A stretch of DNA of 64,000 nt from a virus. Where the stretch lies: IMG/VR virus record IMGVR_UViG_3300021476_000002, positions 16,578 to 80,577 of that record; one strand, 5' to 3'. Below are positions 19,067 through 64,000 of this stretch, piece after piece (within the stretch, counting starts at the first letter, position 1; every line of letters starts with the position of its first letter). A program made the translations under genes and the position numbers. The notes beneath the pieces were generated by a model. It saw only the letters and a list, made by a program, of their open reading frames with translations. It was not told where the DNA came from and did no database searches.

Positions 19067-19453
19067 GTGACACAGTGTATGTGGCCAATGGGTGCTAAGC
19101 CGGAAGACGAAAACCGGTGTAAGAACAAAGCCACAAACGATCTTCAGGCTACCGCGAGGGGCAAGGCTCTTAGTACAGACCCGAAAGGGAATCCCGTCAA
19201 GATTCCCATAATGGGTAAGGTCCGCATGTTTGTGTGCGACGAACACCTTGAAGGCTCTAAGGCTCAGTACGGCGTAACGCCGTTCGGTCCAAACGTGGAA
19301 GACGTAATCATTGATGTTATTGTGGGGCCGTGGCCCCCGCGTCAGTATCGGGAAGACCAGCGAGTCGTGATTGGAAACCCGGCGGACGAGTACAGCGAAA
19401 AGTATGAAAACCCGGATGAGCCTTTCATACGTGGTGGGAAGGGTTGGAGATAA
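19067..19453 (+). CDS. Hypothetical protein (Cys/His)
   Basis: C...C...CDEH motif. Confidence 0.55.
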   Translation: MTQCMWPMGAKPEDENRCKNKATNDLQATARGKALSTDPKGNPVKIPIMGKVRMFVCDEHLEGSKAQYGVTPFGPNVEDVIIDVIVGPWPPRQYREDQRVVIGNPADEYSEKYENPDEPFIRGGKGWR

Positions 19454-19457
19454 GTCG

Positions 19458-20585
19458 GTGACAATCGAAACCCTGCGGTCTTATTTTCCTCGCATTGGTC
19501 GAATTGGTATGGGGTTCATGACCGACACGAAAGCAGATGGTACGAAGGCTAAGCGTCCGTTTCCTGCCCGTACAGAGACGTTTGTATTCCATGCTGACGA
19601 CGAAGACCGTGCCAAAGAGGTTGCGCGTGTTTTTGGTGGCGATGTAGCCGAGGCTATCAGCCGAGACGAAGAGGGCGGGCGCTGGCGAGTTATCACGAAG
19701 GCCAAGGAAATCGAATTCTTTCTTCCAACAGACGATGAGCGGTCGGTGGACTTTTGGATGGAGAAGTGGAACAACCTAGGGGTCGTGCGCCGATGCACCG
19801 GCAATGTGTGCGTCATGGCCGTCGTGGATAGCAAGCCTGACCCACAGACAGGAGAAGTGGTTAAGCAGACGATTCGCAACGTGCCATGTCTGTGCGAACA
19901 GGAGAACGCGCACGGTGAAGACGCCTGCGATACCACTACCAGGATGAACGTTGTGATTCCTGTCCTTAAGGATGCGCCGGGGCTAGGGGTCTGGCAGGTG
20001 CAATCCCGTGGGCGTGGCACGTGTCAAGCCATTAAGGGGTCTATCGAACTGCTTCAGGCGCTTCGGGGGAGTATTGCTCTGACTCCCCTTATTCTCGTGG
20101 CGGGCATGAAGCGCGTGCAGTACGAGGAAGACGGGCAAACCAAGAGCATGAGCGTGCCGCAGATGAGCATTGACACAACACGCTCTATGGGGCAGTACGT
20201 GGAAGAGAAGCGGTCGGCCAGGGCGTTGATTGATGTTCCCGACGTAGACCGAAATCAGCCTGTGATTGGGGCATTACCAGCACCAAAGGCTAAAGAATCT
20301 ACGGAGGTCCCGACCGGAGCGGTGAATGGAGACGCTGACGGTTCGCAGCCTAGGCCAACCGCGCTGGCTCCGGCGGACCCTATTCCCAACGATCAAACCG
20401 CTACTACGGAGCAGCGGTCAAGGTTGTGGGAATACGCTAAGGGACTTGGGATTACAAAGGATGAAGCGCGTTATATTGTAAAAACTCATTTCAACAAACC
20501 AAGCACAGAGGGCATGACTGTCGCGCAACTGGCGCAGGTCAAGGATATCATCACGAAGTTTGCGAGTGGGAGGGAAAAGAAATGA
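19458..20585 (+). CDS. Gp3-like / recombination directionality factor-like protein (phiC31 gp3 family)
   Basis: FPRIGRIGMG...RRCTG...CLCEQ...C...MNVVIP...GLGVWQVQSRG pattern; ERF-like C-terminal tail. Confidence 0.7.
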   Translation: MTIETLRSYFPRIGRIGMGFMTDTKADGTKAKRPFPARTETFVFHADDEDRAKEVARVFGGDVAEAISRDEEGGRWRVITKAKEIEFFLPTDDERSVDFWMEKWNNLGVVRRCTGNVCVMAVVDSKPDPQTGEVVKQTIRNVPCLCEQENAHGEDACDTTTRMNVVIPVLKDAPGLGVWQVQSRGRGTCQAIKGSIELLQALRGSIALTPLILVAGMKRVQYEEDGQTKSMSVPQMSIDTTRSMGQYVEEKRSARALIDVPDVDRNQPVIGALPAPKAKESTEVPTGAVNGDADGSQPRPTALAPADPIPNDQTATTEQRSRLWEYAKGLGITKDEARYIVKTHFNKPSTEGMTVAQLAQVKDIITKFASGREKK

Positions 20586-20689
20586 CAGGAAAGGCTAAAA
20601 AATGCACAACAGGAAAGGCTAAAACTTTCACGCGGGTGATGGGTGGCAGATGGGTGACGGTCAGCGGTCGGCGGGTGTACCTGTCGTGA
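20582..20689 (+). CDS. 35-aa mini-protein carrying the WVTVxGxxVY tag
   Basis: MTGKAKKCTTGKAKTFTRVMGGRWVTVSGRRVYLS; GGGAGG RBS; ATGA overlap upstream and GTGA overlap downstream. Confidence 0.65.
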   Translation: MTGKAKKCTTGKAKTFTRVMGGRWVTVSGRRVYLS

Positions 20690-49397: not shown

Positions 49398-49620
49398 GGC
49401 GGGTTGTACGCACGAGGCGATCTATGGAGTTTACTGCAAGACCAAGGATACAGGGATGTTTCCTGTTCACCTCCGTGGAAAGGTTGTGGCTACCCCAATT
49501 TGCGCTGAACACTTGTGTGATGTGTGCAATGAAGGTATGAAACAGGGCGCGTCGGTCTCAATTCTTTTCCTCGATACATTAGTTCCAGCATTAGCAAAAC
49601 AGGCGGCGTTTAATCACTAA
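49360..49620 (+). CDS. Cys-rich hypothetical protein
   Basis: C...C.H...C...C.EHLC..C; abuts terL. Confidence 0.5.
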   Translation: MEAETMVTVQCGKAGCTHEAIYGVYCKTKDTGMFPVHLRGKVVATPICAEHLCDVCNEGMKQGASVSILFLDTLVPALAKQAAFNH

Positions 49621-51428
49621 TGTCTGACATCGTAGTCCCAACAGACCTGGAACCATTTTTAACCGGAGACTCTGATAATTTCATTGAGCCTCCCGTTACC
49701 ATTGGAACGTTTATCGTTGGGGAAAAGTATTGCAACATGAAGGAGAGAATTTGGCCCGCTGTTCTGATGGAGTTGGTAAATATTTTCGGTAAGGACCCAT
49801 ACAAATTCGAGAATGAAGAGGCTGTGATTATCGCGGGGTTTGGTTCTGGTAAATCCTATTTGGTCTCAATGGCATTTACGTACATGCTGTACTGGCTCTT
49901 GAACATGAGGAACCCTCATAAGTATTTGCGTACAGGGTTGTCTCCTGGGTCCACGATCATGCTTGTTAACCAAGCCCTTCGGGAAGATCAGGCGCGGAAG
50001 ATTATTTTCCAGGACGTTGCGAACCTCGTTGGGGATGCGCCGTGGTTTGCGAATCACAATATGTTACCCGTGAAAAATGTCACCAGCGAATTGAGATTTC
50101 CCAAGAATATCGTTTTGTTTCCCGGTACGTCGTCAATGACGTTTCCTCAAGGGTACAATATGTTCGCTGGTGCGATTGATGAGGCTGCATTGTTCCAGGA
50201 GCGCACCATAGCAGGGGAGTTTGAAAAGACTGACCCCGCAGAGAAAATCCATGAGACCATGAAGGCTCGTAAGTTTTCTCGGTTTGGTAATAGGGGAATG
50301 ATCTTGGTGATTTCTTCTCCGACACACTTGGATGCTTTTATTGAAAGGCGCTATCGGTTTATTTTGGCCGGTGACCCCGATAGGGGTATTCCTAAGCCTA
50401 AGCGGTCGTTTGCGGATAGAAAAGCGCATTGGGAGATGAAGCCTGGGCCAGAAAAGGATGTAAATGGCCGATGGGTTCCGTGGCATTTCGTACCGTTTCG
50501 TCAGGTAAAGTATAATCCCGATGGTACTGAGGGTGATGTGTTTGAGTTGATGGTGCCTGATGTAATGATTACAGACTTTGAGGCAAACCCTGAAGCGTAC
50601 AAGCGAGACTATGCCTGTATTGTTGGCCGCACGGGCATGGGTTTCTTCTGGGACCCAGATGTTGTAACGAGGCCATCTAGCGGTATTGGACTCCCAGGGT
50701 TCAACCCGAATCATTTGTCACCTCTTATGGTTAATGGACAAATTGACACGAGACTGCGTTGGTCTGATATGAACTCAAACACTCGATGCTATGGACATTT
50801 TGACTTGGCATTAGCACGTGACGCCGTAGGTGTTTGCATTGGTCATATATCAGGCGAGACTGTGGTTCATGGTGAGCGTAAACCAGTTATTTATACTGAC
50901 CTGATGATGGAGATTAAAACTACTCCAGGGAATCAAATAGATTTTGCCAGCGTGCGTCAAATTGTTTGGGATTTCAAGGGACGTGGTTATCCAATAGCAG
51001 GCGTAACATTTGACCAATTCCAGTCAATCGAGGGGATTCAGCAGTTGAACAAGCGCGGTATGGCGGCGTCCGTTTTATCAGTAGATAAAGACACTTCGGC
51101 TTACGATATCATGAAGGAGTGTATCAACGAGGGGCGATTGGATTATTACAAGTACGAGCCATTTGAGGAATGTATCCGGTCTTTGGTTTTGGTTAACGTT
51201 GGTGGAAGGGCTAAGGTAGAGCACACCAAGACAGGCAAGAAGGACGTATCGGATGCCGTGGCGGCTGTGTGTTGGGTTTTAACAAGGTTATGGATGGGTG
51301 GCGAAGAATTCCTTCCATATGGCTCAGGTATAGGGACCATAACGATTCCAAGCCAGTTCGGAAGTCAATGGGGTAATGTAGCCGTGGCGGGACAGAGAGC
51401 GCCCAAGCGGGCAATCGTGGGAGGGTGA
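49620..51428 (+). CDS. terL: Terminase large subunit
   Basis: Walker A IAGFGSGKS; Walker B GAIDEA; ISSP coupling motif; RNase H nuclease GHFDLA...DAVG...FDQFQS...KDVSDAVA. Confidence 0.93.
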   Translation: MSDIVVPTDLEPFLTGDSDNFIEPPVTIGTFIVGEKYCNMKERIWPAVLMELVNIFGKDPYKFENEEAVIIAGFGSGKSYLVSMAFTYMLYWLLNMRNPHKYLRTGLSPGSTIMLVNQALREDQARKIIFQDVANLVGDAPWFANHNMLPVKNVTSELRFPKNIVLFPGTSSMTFPQGYNMFAGAIDEAALFQERTIAGEFEKTDPAEKIHETMKARKFSRFGNRGMILVISSPTHLDAFIERRYRFILAGDPDRGIPKPKRSFADRKAHWEMKPGPEKDVNGRWVPWHFVPFRQVKYNPDGTEGDVFELMVPDVMITDFEANPEAYKRDYACIVGRTGMGFFWDPDVVTRPSSGIGLPGFNPNHLSPLMVNGQIDTRLRWSDMNSNTRCYGHFDLALARDAVGVCIGHISGETVVHGERKPVIYTDLMMEIKTTPGNQIDFASVRQIVWDFKGRGYPIAGVTFDQFQSIEGIQQLNKRGMAASVLSVDKDTSAYDIMKECINEGRLDYYKYEPFEECIRSLVLVNVGGRAKVEHTKTGKKDVSDAVAAVCWVLTRLWMGGEEFLPYGSGIGTITIPSQFGSQWGNVAVAGQRAPKRAIVGG

Positions 51429-52138
51429 TGGATATGAAGGCCATCGCGGCGTTATTCACTGTTTTGGCTCTTATTTCTGGGCCAGTAAATTTGGCTTATT
51501 CACAAAATTTGGATGTGACTCAGAACAAAATGCACATGCTGGAATCGAGCGTATGGATTCAGAATGGTGACGGTGTATGCGGTGGGACGTACTTTACTTC
51601 TCAGAAACTTATCACGGCTGCTCATTGTGTGAATGGCGTTGCTCCCGATGGGCGAGTGATTGTACATACATACCAAGGGAGTTCTTTGATGGGTGTTGTT
51701 GAAAGGCGTAACGTTGAATTGGATTTGGCTATCGTTGTGACAACCAACAGGCCGGATGGACAGCCATATATTCAGTTGGGAGATTCTGTTAACGTGTTCG
51801 ATGAGGTGTGGGGTATCGGCGCACCTCTCGGGGAACCATTTATTGTGTCTCATGGGTATATCTCGAAGATCGTGATTGACAGTTTCGAGAACTGCGATAA
51901 GAACGACAAGGGCGGGACTGGTCAGCAGCAGATTTTGACAATTGATATAATGGCTTTTGGTGGCGATAGCGGCGGCGGTGTGTTTGATGCGAACGGACGT
52001 TTGGTAGGTGTGTGGGTTCGTCAGATTCAGGTAGGATGGACCTGTGAGAACCAGAACGGCGTTGCTGTTCCGTTGTGGGGGTTTGCTGTTGGCATTGATA
52101 CCGTGAAGGGATTTTTAGGTCAGGAGGCGAATCAATGA
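51425..52138 (+). CDS. Secreted trypsin-like serine protease
   Basis: Signal peptide; ITAAHC (His), DLAIV (Asp), GGDSGGGVF (Ser). Confidence 0.92.
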   Translation: MMDMKAIAALFTVLALISGPVNLAYSQNLDVTQNKMHMLESSVWIQNGDGVCGGTYFTSQKLITAAHCVNGVAPDGRVIVHTYQGSSLMGVVERRNVELDLAIVVTTNRPDGQPYIQLGDSVNVFDEVWGIGAPLGEPFIVSHGYISKIVIDSFENCDKNDKGGTGQQQILTIDIMAFGGDSGGGVFDANGRLVGVWVRQIQVGWTCENQNGVAVPLWGFAVGIDTVKGFLGQEANQ

Positions 52139-60247: not shown

Positions 60248-60568
60248 GTGGGTGGTTTCTGGGCTTACGACGATACAGTTGTAGAAGGCCCGTCTGGCGG
60301 GCGGTGTTATACCTGCGGCGTTGGGGCGGGGGTGAGTAAGATTCATGTGGATGTGTTCTGGCGGCCAGACCCTCACGAGGGACCACGGAAACTGATGCGA
60401 TCTTACGATGAAGACTTTAAGCACCAGAGCGAACGCCTGTTTGGCAATCCTCAGTTGTGCGAGGATTGTCTTGCATGGTCGCAGAGACACGGCGGGCTTG
60501 TCCTAAGCCTGAAGCGTGGCCAGCGTGGTAAGAGTAATGGGGATGGGCGACTTGAGGATTCCGACTAA
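60248..60568 (+). CDS. Zinc-finger hypothetical protein
   Basis: CYTC...CEDC. Confidence 0.5.
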   Translation: MGGFWAYDDTVVEGPSGGRCYTCGVGAGVSKIHVDVFWRPDPHEGPRKLMRSYDEDFKHQSERLFGNPQLCEDCLAWSQRHGGLVLSLKRGQRGKSNGDGRLEDSD

Positions 60569-61901
60569 GGTTCAAGAGGCCGCACGCGAGACGCGGGAGG
60601 GAGCCGATAGTGATGGCTACCATTGGGTGACTATTGCTGGAAATCCTGTAAAGATCAAAGATACTGGTCGGAAGTCTCAGATCGTAGCCCACAAAGATGA
60701 AGGTAAGATTGAATTTTTTGGTGGTCGTGGGTGGGCACAGTCACCTTCTGTTGTTGAGAAATTGGGCTTTGGACGAAGGGCATTTCGATTCTTGTATGAA
60801 CCGAAGTCTGGTACATTGGTTACCAATGCGCCTGCCGGTTATGATGTTTTGCATTCGTCAATGGTAAAGAACATGGGGTGGGGTTCAAAGTCTGAGGATG
60901 GATTGCTTCATGGAATGAGTTTTAGTTCTGGTGGAATTGGATTGTATGGATTTGAAGACGATAAAGAATTTGAGACAGCATCAGCGCGGTTTGCGCGTGA
61001 TGTTCTTGGGGCGATTCCAGGTTACAAGGGTATGCCGGTTGAGATGATTGGAAGGGGAAGTAAGTATGACTATTTAACTAAGGTTACGGTTCCCTCTACG
61101 GCATGGCAGCCGGTGCCACGTCGCGGGGTTTCATTGGGTAGTGTTGCTGGTTTGTCTCGTGAGTCAGCGCGTGAGGCTGAGTGGGACTCTGAGAAGCATC
61201 CGAGGGGTGAGCACGGCAAGTTTGCCTCCAAGGATGAACCGGCGCACAGCGCGGTAATACACGCAGTTATTGAGCCAGAGAATCGGCAGGCGTATGTACA
61301 GCACGTGGCTGAGGAGTTGGGTTGGCATGGGCCAGTAAGGTATGTGCATGGAGATGGGCCTAAGTTTACTCCTGGTCAAACTGCCACGGGTCCGCAAGAT
61401 GAAAACACTGAAGCGGCGCATTTCGATCCCCAGAAGAATGAATTGGTTTTCTATCAGGGCACATTTGAGGTCGGTGGTAAACCAGAGAGTATGCTTGCAA
61501 TTGAGGGAATCGTAGCGCATGAGGTTGAGCACGCAAAATTCCACCAATGGTTTAAGGATTCTCTTGCTGATGAAATGATGGCAAGTGCCGTAGCGTCCGA
61601 TAAGAATGTGCCGATGCGGGATGTCTTGACTAAAGAGGACCACCCGATTGCTTACGATAGACTTAATTCTTACGATAGAGCATATGGTGATTTGGAAAAA
61701 GAAGATGGGGTTACAGCGTATGATGGACAGTACTGGAAAATTGGCATAACCCAACGTGCGATTGATGAGGGGTTGGCAGAAATTAGTCGCACGCTTCACA
61801 AGGGCGATACGGTTGGATTTCGTATGTTAGGGGATAGCCACCCACAAATGATGAAATTGTGGAACATCGTAAAAGAATATACCAAGCAGCACCCGCTATG
61901 A
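60516..61901 (+). CDS. Polyvalent/internal-head-type multidomain protein with gluzincin-like peptidase
   Basis: HWVTIAGNPVKI tag; WDSEKHPRGEHGKF motif; AHEVEH...EGLAE. Confidence 0.75.
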   Translation: MASVVRVMGMGDLRIPTKVQEAARETREGADSDGYHWVTIAGNPVKIKDTGRKSQIVAHKDEGKIEFFGGRGWAQSPSVVEKLGFGRRAFRFLYEPKSGTLVTNAPAGYDVLHSSMVKNMGWGSKSEDGLLHGMSFSSGGIGLYGFEDDKEFETASARFARDVLGAIPGYKGMPVEMIGRGSKYDYLTKVTVPSTAWQPVPRRGVSLGSVAGLSRESAREAEWDSEKHPRGEHGKFASKDEPAHSAVIHAVIEPENRQAYVQHVAEELGWHGPVRYVHGDGPKFTPGQTATGPQDENTEAAHFDPQKNELVFYQGTFEVGGKPESMLAIEGIVAHEVEHAKFHQWFKDSLADEMMASAVASDKNVPMRDVLTKEDHPIAYDRLNSYDRAYGDLEKEDGVTAYDGQYWKIGITQRAIDEGLAEISRTLHKGDTVGFRMLGDSHPQMMKLWNIVKEYTKQHPL

Positions 61902-64000
61902 TTCGTAGATTGCCAGACAGGACAATAATCGCCTACCTGGACAGCGAGTGGAAGCCGGTAGAGCCGAATCAGGCTACGATCATTAAGGTGATCTATCCTG
62001 ACGGGCGTACTGTGTTTGCGCGGCCATCCGCACAGATGGTTGAGGTTGATAGTGATATTGATATGAAACGTTCTGTCACGCTTCTCACCAGGGACGATAA
62101 AAAAGATGATATGCGTTGGGTGACAATAAACGGAAGACATTTCAAATTGTGGGACGATCAAGGAAACCCACAGGCAATAGATAAGGCAAAAGAGCGCGGG
62201 GATAAACCGGATTACCAAGGTAACGAACCATTAGTTCAGGCTAAGTGGTTGTTGGACCCGAAGGGTATGGTATTCTTCCATACACGTATGCACCACACGA
62301 TTGTTGCGAGGGCGCTTGGGAATGACGACCCACTTCAGGATTCTGGAGGGACTATAGCAAACAATCACGTGTATCAAGATATGGGAGAAAGAAGCGATGA
62401 GACTAAGCGGCGAGTAGCATCTGAATGGACAAAGTTTCGTTCCATGGAATCTCGTGAGGCTGAAGTAGAAGATCAGCCTGTTCATTTTGTGACATGGATG
62501 GGGCATGTGATTCCCATTAAGGGAGCGAAGCCTCAGCCGGGTAGACCAATTCCGGGAGCCGAAGAGAAGGAATTACCAGAGGCGTTCGGTCCCCACAGGA
62601 CAAAAGAGGGTGTTGTAAAACTTCCAACCGGCGACACGTGGCGGTATTCGTATCGGAGGGAGTTTTCTGATGCTCCTCCAAGCGCAACCGTGACACCAGA
62701 TCAGGTAGATGGTGTTCATGAGGCGGCGGCTGTGCAGGCGGCGTTTGAGGCCGCTAGGATGTTTTGGACATCGGACGACCCTGATGCCAGGGCGTTGCGT
62801 GCGGCTGACAATGAACCACGGGAAGCGGCTGATTTGAGTAAAATGAAGGCGGACATGCACGTTATTTTTACGATGAATATGAAAGACTATGGCATGGGTT
62901 CCGCAGGGTATGGCGGTGGCAAGGTGTTCTGGGGGCCGTATTCCGTTCCAGATCGAGAAGCACGGTTGACTGCCCCTAATGGATATCATGCAGGGCAGTC
63001 TATCGGTGTAGACCCTATGTATGTAATGGGGCATGAATTGCATCATGCTTTTGGATATGGAAGCGAGTTTGATAAAAGCAGCGATGTGGTTGGAGTTGCA
63101 GCGCATATCATTTCAGGGCTTCAGCACAATCCTGCGGCGGCAACCGAACAGGTTCATATGTGGCTTGCGAATTACAGTTACGGCAGCAAGCCGCAATGGA
63201 GGAATAATTCTGGTAGATCGTTGCGATGGTTGAATAACCGTTGGCCTGACGCTATGGAGCATTTGGCTGTAATGTCGGGATACACACAGCAGCAATGGCA
63301 TGAAACTGTTGATAAGTTTAATCGGATTGGTAGGCATAAGGCCAAGGAATCTATGCGGTTGAAAGCCGACCAAATTGACTTAGATGGACATAAGCCCGAA
63401 GAGGTCTTGATGGTGTCGGTTGATAGGTTGCATCCTCGAATGGGTGGGACGGGGCATGGCCCTGAGCGCCCAGAAGAGGTGGCTCAAGCCATGAAGTCAG
63501 GCAAGATGAAGATGAAACCGTTGACTGCGATTAAGCGTGAGGATGGTGAATGGTGGATTGGAGACGGGCATCGTAGGTTTGGCGCGGCTGAGATTCTTGG
63601 TATTCCTAGATTGCCTGTTGTGGAAATCAGAGAGGTTGCTACTAAGGAGGCTTCGAGTACAATACAGGCAGTCCTGAGCCTACCGTCTCGTTATGACGAC
63701 CCCGGCCATTGGCGGATGGTTATGGGGCATCCAGTGTACATCAAGGATAAGGTTCCTGGGGCGGTGACGAAGTTTGACACACCGGAGGTTGTGGCGGCGC
63801 GTAAGGGTCAGTCTGAGATTCAACACACAAGCGATATCAAGACTCCAGAGCGTGCCCGTATGCGGGCGACGTGGGTTTCGGCAGAGACCGCAAGGTTGGT
63901 GGCTGATAACCCCGAAAAGGGCAGGCAGTTTTGGCTTGTACTAGGATTACCGGCCAGCGGCAAATCCGGTCAGGTGGCTGAACCATTAGCGCAGCGCGTG
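61898..64000 (+). CDS. Large polyvalent protein (3'-truncated, missing from the ORF track): zincin, ParB/Srx-like and Zeta-toxin-like P-loop kinase domains
   Basis: Hand-translated: 701 codons with no stop; ATGA overlap with the previous gene; GHELHH, IGDGHRR..AA..LG, VLGLPASGKS. Confidence 0.85.
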   Translation, partial: MIRRLPDRTIIAYLDSEWKPVEPNQATIIKVIYPDGRTVFARPSAQMVEVDSDIDMKRSVTLLTRDDKKDDMRWVTINGRHFKLWDDQGNPQAIDKAKERGDKPDYQGNEPLVQAKWLLDPKGMVFFHTRMHHTIVARALGNDDPLQDSGGTIANNHVYQDMGERSDETKRRVASEWTKFRSMESREAEVEDQPVHFVTWMGHVIPIKGAKPQPGRPIPGAEEKELPEAFGPHRTKEGVVKLPTGDTWRYSYRREFSDAPPSATVTPDQVDGVHEAAAVQAAFEAARMFWTSDDPDARALRAADNEPREAADLSKMKADMHVIFTMNMKDYGMGSAGYGGGKVFWGPYSVPDREARLTAPNGYHAGQSIGVDPMYVMGHELHHAFGYGSEFDKSSDVVGVAAHIISGLQHNPAAATEQVHMWLANYSYGSKPQWRNNSGRSLRWLNNRWPDAMEHLAVMSGYTQQQWHETVDKFNRIGRHKAKESMRLKADQIDLDGHKPEEVLMVSVDRLHPRMGGTGHGPERPEEVAQAMKSGKMKMKPLTAIKREDGEWWIGDGHRRFGAAEILGIPRLPVVEIREVATKEASSTIQAVLSLPSRYDDPGHWRMVMGHPVYIKDKVPGAVTKFDTPEVVAARKGQSEIQHTSDIKTPERARMRATWVSAETARLVADNPEKGRQFWLVLGLPASGKSGQVAEPLAQRV

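Follow-up and report, generated by a model that had tools for sequence, protein, structure and literature searches.

The stretch of DNA analysed here, called the window, comprises 64,000 nt and corresponds to positions 16578-80577 of a linear IMG/VR virus record of 113,878 bp (IMGVR_UViG_3300021476_000002), which is about 87% complete. At its downstream end begins a set of three coupled open reading frames (ORFs) that encode large polyvalent proteins, in which most of the unrelated modules are introduced by one of two short recurrent peptides, the WVT tag and the HPRG-type tag. The ORFs and all features located within them are on the + strand. ORF1 is found at 60516-61901 and encodes 461 aa when read from a GTG codon; the database start at 60543, 9 aa later, gives 452 aa. 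ORF2 starts at 61898 and continues beyond position 64000 to 65716 in window-equivalent numbering (the window numbering carried past 64000), with a length of 1272-1285 aa, and ORF3 occupies window-equivalent 65713-68805 (1030 aa). Consecutive pairs are coupled by an ATGA overlap, that of ORF1 and ORF2 lying at 61898-61901. The initial annotation, made from the window, had recognized two coupled ORFs, the second of which leaves the window. This is borne out, and extension past position 64000 yields the 1285 aa of ORF2 and adds the third coupled polyvalent ORF, which lay outside its view. Loci and proteins used for comparison are labelled L001, L002, P0008 and so forth.

The three ORFs are placed between the genes for the large terminase and the portal protein, that is, in the head-gene region. 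As in polyvalent phage proteins, the class named by the initial annotation, multiple enzyme-type domains are present. The large terminase gene (TerL) is located at window 49620-51428, about 9 kb upstream of the polyvalent ORFs, and the portal gene, at window-equivalent 70818-72992 (L001:10818-12992), starts about 2 kb past ORF3. Genes for a neck protein, a major tail protein, a tape measure protein and tail proteins are found at the start of the contig. Almost all genes of the genome are on the + strand, and the GC skew is strong. These landmarks, assigned with PHROG and Pfam, therefore indicate a very divergent, uncultured siphovirus. The genome has no DNA match among cultured phages, no close relatives were found in IMG/VR with ORF1 and the portal as queries, and word-indexed protein searches with these proteins returned solely the proteins themselves. 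The sole relative of the phage that was found is a contig of 5.2 kb.

ORF1 consists of a domain of unknown fold, domain A, followed by a zincin domain. Domain A1 (60657-61154) has two paralogues in ORF3, each behind a WVT tag (self-BLAST 6e-19); the AlphaFold2 (AF2) model has a predicted local distance difference test score (pLDDT) below 50 with no confident fold, and a feature search of a protein atlas gave only ART-like leads. The zincin domain (61239-61892) contains HEVEH at 61518-61532, residues 335-339. Its AF2 model reaches a pLDDT of about 90 over residues 250-350, and the top VIA matches are zincins, from Z 8.7 (a solved zincin) down to 4. In the model the HExxH helix is embedded in a zincin fold, and the domain is a predicted metallopeptidase, with homologues in P0012, L029, P0017 and P0109. 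ORF2 comprises an HExxH module, a ParB-like domain, a Zeta_toxin domain and an ART-like domain. The HExxH module (62519-63349) is a candidate second zincin on the basis of the motif HELHH at 63032-63046; of the two zincin peptidases originally proposed, the one in ORF1 is thus supported by its fold and the other by this motif. The ParB/Srx-like domain (63350-63673), with DGHRR at 63563-63577, matches phrog_1033 (3.3e-8) and is 57% identical to a module of P0008, in agreement with the initial annotation; the match to Pfam ParB_N stays below threshold. The Zeta-toxin-like P-loop kinase that had also been predicted starts at 63929, continues past the end of the window (63929-64000 lies within it) and has its Walker A motif GLPASGKS at 63944-63967; Zeta_toxin (PF06414) matches ORF2 residues 691-823 above the cut-off (7.2e-15).

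ORF3 contains two copies of domain A, a WHGS domain, an ART-like domain and a GNAT domain. The ART-like domains, at the C-terminus of ORF2 and in the middle of ORF3, resemble each other (6e-11) and match DRAT weakly, below threshold. The C-terminal domain of ORF3 has a confirmed GNAT acetyltransferase fold, modelled by AF2 with a pLDDT above 94. Across the three ORFs, solely Zeta_toxin/AAA_33 reaches the Pfam cut-off; ART-PolyVal, MPTase-PolyVal and the LPDs are unmatched. The WHGS ('WHGSPSGD') domain, at ORF3 residues 454-630 (window-equivalent 67072-67602; L001:7072-7602), is an unnamed domain with the sequence WHGSPSGDLRGG..GLHVG and without a match in Pfam. ORF3 matches 2803 representative clusters (E<=1e-3), and among the 150 best-scoring of these the majority is due to the WHGS domain, typically with 45-60% identity, a striking conservation; the proteins that host it reach 4564 aa.

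Nine WVT tags and three HPRG-type tags are found in the three ORFs. The WVT tag has 12 residues with the consensus (D/E)xG(H/R)-W-V-T-I-x-G-x-(P/H)-V-F-I; the HPRG-type tag reads (W/F)(D/E)xxKHPRGxxGKF and is usually followed by a Gly-rich linker. Within the window, the WVT tags are W1 at 60621-60656 (HWVTIAGNPVKI; 29.9 bits with a hidden Markov model (HMM) of the tag), W2 at 62114-62149 (RWVTINGRHFKL; 21.3 bits), W3 at 62483-62518 (HFVTWMGHVIPI; 21.7 bits) and W4 at 63707-63742 (HWRMVMGHPVYI; 26.5 bits), and the HPRG-type tag H1, recognized by regular expression in the sequence, lies at 61182-61223 (WDSEKHPRGEHGKF); it belongs to the motif class found in 62 IMG/VR loci (see below). All five had been located by the initial annotation and are confirmed in the sequence. 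Past the window end, ORF2 has one further WVT tag, RWITKGGVRFPI, and ORF3 has three WVT tags, two of the form HWVTIAGH.. and HWVEIDGHPVKI, together with the HPRG-type tags QPRDPHGRWW and WDPERHPRGEHGHF.

A six-frame regular-expression search of the genome confines the WVT pattern to the three ORFs and one mini-gene, and the tag HMM gives 10 six-frame matches of at least 8 bits versus none in reversed sequences, of which the best scores 6.6 bits. The mini-gene (20582-20689, + strand), which had been put forward as a sign that the motif is an autonomous signal, is a predicted gene of 35 aa preceded by GGGAGGG, which resembles a ribosome-binding site, and linked to the preceding gene by an ATGA overlap. 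Its product has a Lys-rich N-terminus and ends in the WVT tag RWVTVSGRRVYLS, directly followed by the stop (24.3 bits). The gene ahead of it, at window 19371-20585, is Gp3-like and resembles a recombination directionality factor (PF18897, 3e-28); the mini-gene is therefore placed in an early or recombination region, outside the head module.

WVT-like tags that are weaker or one residue longer occur in three proteins encoded between the portal and the contig end: HWVTVGNHHFWM in a protein of 659 aa, MAWATLGDGRHIFF at the very N-terminus of a protein of 282 aa that also has GWVTFGGHRFLI, and HWITLQNGYHVRV and HFITYDGRVIPL in a protein of 504 aa. Together with a protein of 389 aa, they make up a group of four basic low-complexity proteins encoded at genome positions 105496-111606 (L002:10919-17029), which are possibly scaffold or internal-core proteins. 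A third repeated motif, (ES)MREDWxx(F/W)DxxR, has six copies in total in the 659-, 504- and 389-aa proteins of this group.

The modules not only start with a tag but also tend to end in a recognizable way. The runs described in the initial annotation are present: AARETREG, with its [K/R]-E-[A/G] sites, at 60579-60602 ahead of W1, and, at module ends, SRESAREAE at 61155-61181, ESREAE at 62447-62464 and TKEAS at 63641-63655. For the pattern [STA][KR]E[ASG], the three ORFs together give 13 matches versus 1.25 +/- 1.1 in shuffled sequences, and none of 2000 shuffles reaches 13. The three ORFs hold 13 of the 20 matches in the proteome, the other 7 being spread over about 32,500 residues. Most tags of the three ORFs have an end motif 0-30 residues ahead of them, and the (S/T)(K/R)E(A/S) sites coincide with the ends of between-module homology. 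They thus mark module ends, which fits a cut after Glu.

Comparisons between copies indicate that selection acts on the tag as a peptide. W1 and W6 are identical at 14 of 18 residues, yet only 5 of those 14 residues share the same codon; residues have been kept while codons diverged, and conservation is therefore at the protein level. A DNA-level repeat, a recent duplication or a recombination signal is ruled out by this divergence of synonymous sites. The tag is not a piece of the adjacent domain either, since homologues of the GNAT and WHGS domains exist without it and no packing is seen in the AF2 models, in accordance with the initial proposal of an autonomous signal. GNAT-like and WHGS domains are found in hundreds of other proteins without a WVT tag, where an HPRG-type motif and a Gly-rich linker usually precede them or the domain starts the protein; in phage R4 the acetyltransferase stands on its own. 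AF2 places a hairpin exactly over HWVTI/HSFPI (model residues 32-36 and 39-43, ORF3 831-842), with a pLDDT of 40-57 for the tag versus above 94 for the GNAT domain. A hairpin of low confidence is also placed on YHWVTI/NPVKIKD of ORF1 (W1, strands at 35-40 and 43-49, low pLDDT), and neither packs against a neighbouring domain. The WVT tag is thus predicted to form a two-strand hairpin. In several lineages Cys pairs flank the motif, as in C-x-WVTIRGxPVC-I. That the tag is itself an autoproteolytic site is unlikely, because several copies have other residues in place of H or T (HFVTW, HWRMV, HWVEI and RWITK), which leaves no invariant nucleophile.

Module exchange is visible at the tags. P0008, the nearest and only close relative of ORF3, shares 67% identity with it from ..EAYNPEQPRD.. 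to ..AHLQRLDK(A/T)(K/H)EA, after which homology ceases: ORF3 continues with an HPRG-type tag and an ART domain, and P0008 with a WVT tag and a different module. The homology of the ParB module to P0008 ends at TKEAS/AQEAA. The zincin family of ORF1 is found behind an HPRG-type tag in ORF1 and P0012 and behind a WVT tag in L029. From this and the module swap in P0008 it follows that the tag types are interchangeable and that each is part of the cassette that follows it. A module forms a cassette that opens with a short tag, continues with a domain and closes with the end motif (S/T)(K/R)E(A/S), and both the WVT and the HPRG-type tags are real, portable and under selection as protein.

The tags are not restricted to this phage. 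Two back-translated DNA patterns of the WVT tag were run on IMG/VR, on metagenome contigs and on contigs of species-representative genomes. In IMG/VR, the first pattern gave 5 loci and the second 48, about 50 contigs of uncultured viruses; the WVT patterns gave 21 loci in the metagenome contigs and 12 in the species-representative contigs. An acidic run, or a G followed by H, R or K, is present ahead of the motif in all matched ORFs except L040, L042 and L060; this lead-in is not demanded by the search patterns, and its presence argues against chance matches. L040, where the motif falls in a response-regulator hairpin, and L042 do look like chance matches. The consensus is the same across unrelated phages from several bacterial phyla. 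The KHPRGxxGKF pattern by itself was found at 62 IMG/VR loci and may be N-terminal, internal or C-terminal. No Pfam family models the WVT tag, tag segments giving just sub-threshold matches to T2SSB (11-13 bits); short-query tblastn with both tags against cultured phages gave no credible match, and a full-text literature search for the motif strings returned nothing relevant. The WVT tag has apparently not been described before.

The company that the tag keeps can be seen from the Pfam domains of 60 non-redundant ORFs, which carry 63 tags. Portals of three Pfam families (Phage_portal, Portal_Mu and Phage_portal_2) make up 13 of the 60, and the tag is C-terminal to the portal domain in all 11 of these 13 whose coordinates were inspected. 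L045 and L048 are fusions of portal, tag and ART. Phage_Mu_F is present in one tagged ORF (L051), a second MuF-like protein has two tags (L016), and an S78 prohead protease is tagged in L054. Other domains in tagged ORFs are Zeta toxin, GNAT, histidine phosphatase and PI3/4-kinase-like, and tagged relatives elsewhere do match ART-PolyVal in Pfam. Beyond this phage, WVT tags are thus concentrated among proteins of the head interior, namely portals, MuF proteins, prohead protease fusions and ARTs. The tag lies in the first 60 residues in 20 of the 63 cases, at the extreme C-terminus in 7 and internally in the remainder. Tag-only ORFs, analogous to the mini-gene, recur in other contigs (L043; L023/L030).

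Two further motifs were seen in these genomes. In L006, L007 and L018, contigs of 114-192 kb from IMG/VR and the metagenomes, the motif L-x-LGDVAGHxF(H/R)GNQY occurs up to three times in each of five neighbouring large proteins, one of which also has a WVT tag. In L008, two cargo proteins encoded downstream of the portal and MuF genes (L008:3375-4562 and L008:4838-6835) have an extra N-terminal leader, ELIYRQLLAAGVAVD.ALA.., besides the WVT tag.

On this basis it is possible to propose how the system may work. The coupled genes between the large terminase and the portal of this uncultured siphovirus encode polyvalent effector proteins whose tags would act as docking or address elements; inside the procapsid, the cargo would be held or placed near the portal, and the tagged enzymes would then travel into the cell together with the DNA. 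The E-A/S end motifs might be the places where the polyproteins are cleaved, with an unrecognised head protease or the zincins of the polyproteins as the enzyme. We give this explanation as a whole, in which docking is inferred and cleavage more weakly so, a probability of roughly 0.4. Taken separately, docking in the portal-proximal procapsid interior is plausible, with putative loading into the capsid, although its chances are somewhat below even, and we are more hesitant about the end motifs, which are doubtful as putative cleavage sites. Possibly the zincin domains process the polyproteins that contain them, in line with a suggestion of Iyer et al. (PMC5512222) for MPTase domains. A wider version can also be formulated, in which tailed phages in general would use the WVT hairpin, and likewise the HPRG-type motif, as a portable address tag that binds a conserved site of the procapsid interior near the portal, much as the cargo-loading peptides of encapsulins bind their shell; any cassette gaining a tag would be packaged and injected, and cleavage at lineage-specific E-A sites would divide multi-tag polyproteins into separate effectors. 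We consider this version rather unlikely.

Several observations weigh against docking followed by cleavage. The first group concerns the cuts. The initial annotation had assumed a prohead protease of the gp21 or gp175 type that would act on the R-E sites, and this part is not supported: S77 (PF03420), S78, ClpP and Mu-I protease have no match in the genome, and neither have MuF (PF04233) and an HK97-type capsid gene, although the absence of a head protease, MuF and an HK97 capsid is weak evidence, given the strong divergence of the genome and its completeness of about 87%. The only stand-alone protease of the genome is a trypsin-like (S1) serine protease, encoded at window 51425-52138 in a gene that overlaps the 3' end of the large terminase gene; its N-terminus is signal-peptide-like, which is unusual at that place and suggests a secreted enzyme, so that a role as maturation protease is unlikely. 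The candidate capsid protein lacks the end motif, and the portal and the 659-aa protein have a single copy each. Furthermore, K/Q-E-A residues abut the start of the HPRG-type tag (KEAWDP, QEAYNP); K/R-E-A is partly made up of the first residues of that tag, and the sites are therefore not fully independent of the tags. The enrichment of the sites in the three ORFs is about 10-fold. In other phages no such end motif is found upstream of the tag, so that it is lineage-specific.

The second group concerns the address function. In L005/L028 the tag forms the extreme C-terminus of the portal and a separate gene comes next; a portal that ends in a tag has no need of an address label. The WVT tag also ends bacterial SLT-domain (lytic transglycosylase) proteins without a signal peptide, which are 6 of the 7 C-terminal cases. 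These proteins (L011, L013, L017, L034, L035 and L038, from metagenome contigs and metagenome-assembled genomes (MAGs) of Omnitrophota and Planctomycetia) have a Lys-rich segment and then a Cys-flanked tag, ..C-TEG-HWVTIDGRPVFI-CD. A lipoprotein or membrane-protein gene follows the SLT gene in the 5 loci that reach past it, and the neighbours, where readable, are ordinary chromosomal genes (TrkH, PheS/T, MgsA, phosphoglucomutase and toxin-antitoxin pairs). Finally, actinobacterial membrane proteins start with a Cys-flanked WVT tag. In L032, L037, L041 and L022, from Pseudonocardiaceae and Mycobacteriales MAGs, the N-terminus of such proteins reads G-C-F-R-G-HWVTIDGNPVWI..C, and a transmembrane helix comes after it; one of these genes adjoins a gene that by eye resembles one for a large serine recombinase.

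Alternatively, the tags would be recognition or docking elements for a processing protease, either the head-maturation enzyme or the zincins of the ORFs themselves, and would steer cuts between modules instead of loading. The tag-bearing classes (portal, MuF-like proteins, protease/scaffold fusions and internal proteins) are those of prohead-protease substrates, and the enriched, conserved (S/T)(K/R)E(A/S) upstream of most tags fits the cleavage rule S/A/G-x-E reported for phiKZ-type proteases. A source of activity could be sought in the zincin-fold domain of ORF1 and the second HExxH module of ORF2; Iyer et al. (PMC5512222) discuss autoprocessing. Against this, none of the four protease types sought was found in the genome, tags at the extreme C-terminus (portal L005, the SLT proteins and the mini-ORFs) have nothing downstream to free, and the end motif is unseen ahead of the tag in other phages. 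We regard steering of a protease as improbable, and equally so that the motifs are neutral-to-useful module boundaries, small hairpins or linkers kept by cassette shuffling or because they aid folding, without a specific partner. Module swaps exactly at the tags, the position-independence of the tags and their presence on non-phage proteins would all be expected of such boundaries, as would AF2 hairpins of low confidence that do not pack against their neighbours. A mere linker, however, would not retain an invariant W-V-T-I-x-G core: the residues are strongly conserved despite diverged synonymous sites, with one consensus in unrelated phages from several phyla, and tag-only ORFs stand alone. 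Very improbable is a hairpin that binds nucleic acid or a general ligand, so that tagged proteins ride the packaged DNA out, and that serves another enzyme in bacteria: basic residues are frequent directly ahead of W and in the turn (GR-WVTI-NGRR-VFI), the mini-gene product and the SLT proteins have a Lys-rich segment before the tag, and portal C-termini and MuF-type proteins neighbour the DNA, but an acidic D/E-rich run is almost always ahead of the tag, and in Pfam the tag segments resemble no DNA-binding family.

The docking explanation, which is thus preferred, bears on an early step of infection. Phage proteins that are injected with the DNA act first, and through them defences can be disarmed, or the host taken over, ahead of any phage gene expression. 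To our knowledge, cargo selection for packaging is understood in few model phages, among them T4 and P1. If the tag marks cargo across unrelated phages, injected effectors would be predictable straight from sequence, a handle would be at hand for loading foreign proteins into phage heads, and the assembly of polyvalent proteins would be explained through cassette exchange. In any case the tags offer a simple rule to split large unannotated proteins into functional units.

Among known systems, the internal proteins and Alt of T4 reportedly have capsid targeting sequences that are cut by gp21, and DarB of P1 is said to have an N-terminal targeting region. The resemblance lies in a short peptide on unrelated proteins, which in T4 and P1 are found inside the head, and in the cleavage after Glu in T4 and phiKZ, which is similar to the end motif (S/T)(K/R)E-(A/S). 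In contrast to the T4 and P1 signals, which are strictly N-terminal and belong to one phage each, the WVT and HPRG tags can sit at either end of a protein or inside it, are present in many copies per protein and are common to unrelated phages; moreover, a protease of the gp21 family (S77, PF03420) has no match in this genome. Encapsulins provide a second comparison: short portable cargo-loading peptides address unrelated enzymes into an HK97-fold shell, via flexible Gly-rich linkers. The short portable peptide and the Gly-rich linker are shared, as a functional analogy only; there is no sequence similarity, and the tags described here are often internal and multiple.

Closer to phage effectors are the MuF polymorphic toxins of temperate phages, in which variable toxin modules are carried on a conserved head protein (Jamet et al. 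2017, PMC5576092). Here, too, effector modules are attached to head proteins, and MuF itself is part of some WVT-tagged proteins elsewhere (L051 and L016). Unlike in the MuF toxins, the conserved element is a tag of 12-14 residues and not a domain of 100 residues, the MuF domain is undetected in the genome, and a linker or junction motif is not mentioned by Jamet et al. 2017 (PMC5576092).

The closest counterpart is the class of polyvalent proteins of phages and conjugative elements, which, according to Iyer et al. 2017 (PMC5512222), combine two to fifteen unrelated effector-type domains per polypeptide and were proposed there to be packaged and released by autoproteolysis. The proteins of this siphovirus agree with them in uniting metallopeptidase, ART, ParB-like and Zeta-like kinase domains in one system of polypeptides encoded beside portal and terminase genes, and in the portal and MuF fusions among their tag-bearing relatives. 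They differ in that the Pfam models ART-PolyVal and MPTase-PolyVal miss the copies found here, and in that every module is bounded by one of two portable tags and an end motif, over three coupled genes; a term search of the main text of Iyer et al. (PMC5512222) found no recurrent short junction motif. The proteins described here therefore belong to an established class, the polyvalent phage effectors, which are probably packaged, and are set apart by the portable tags at the junctions of their modules.

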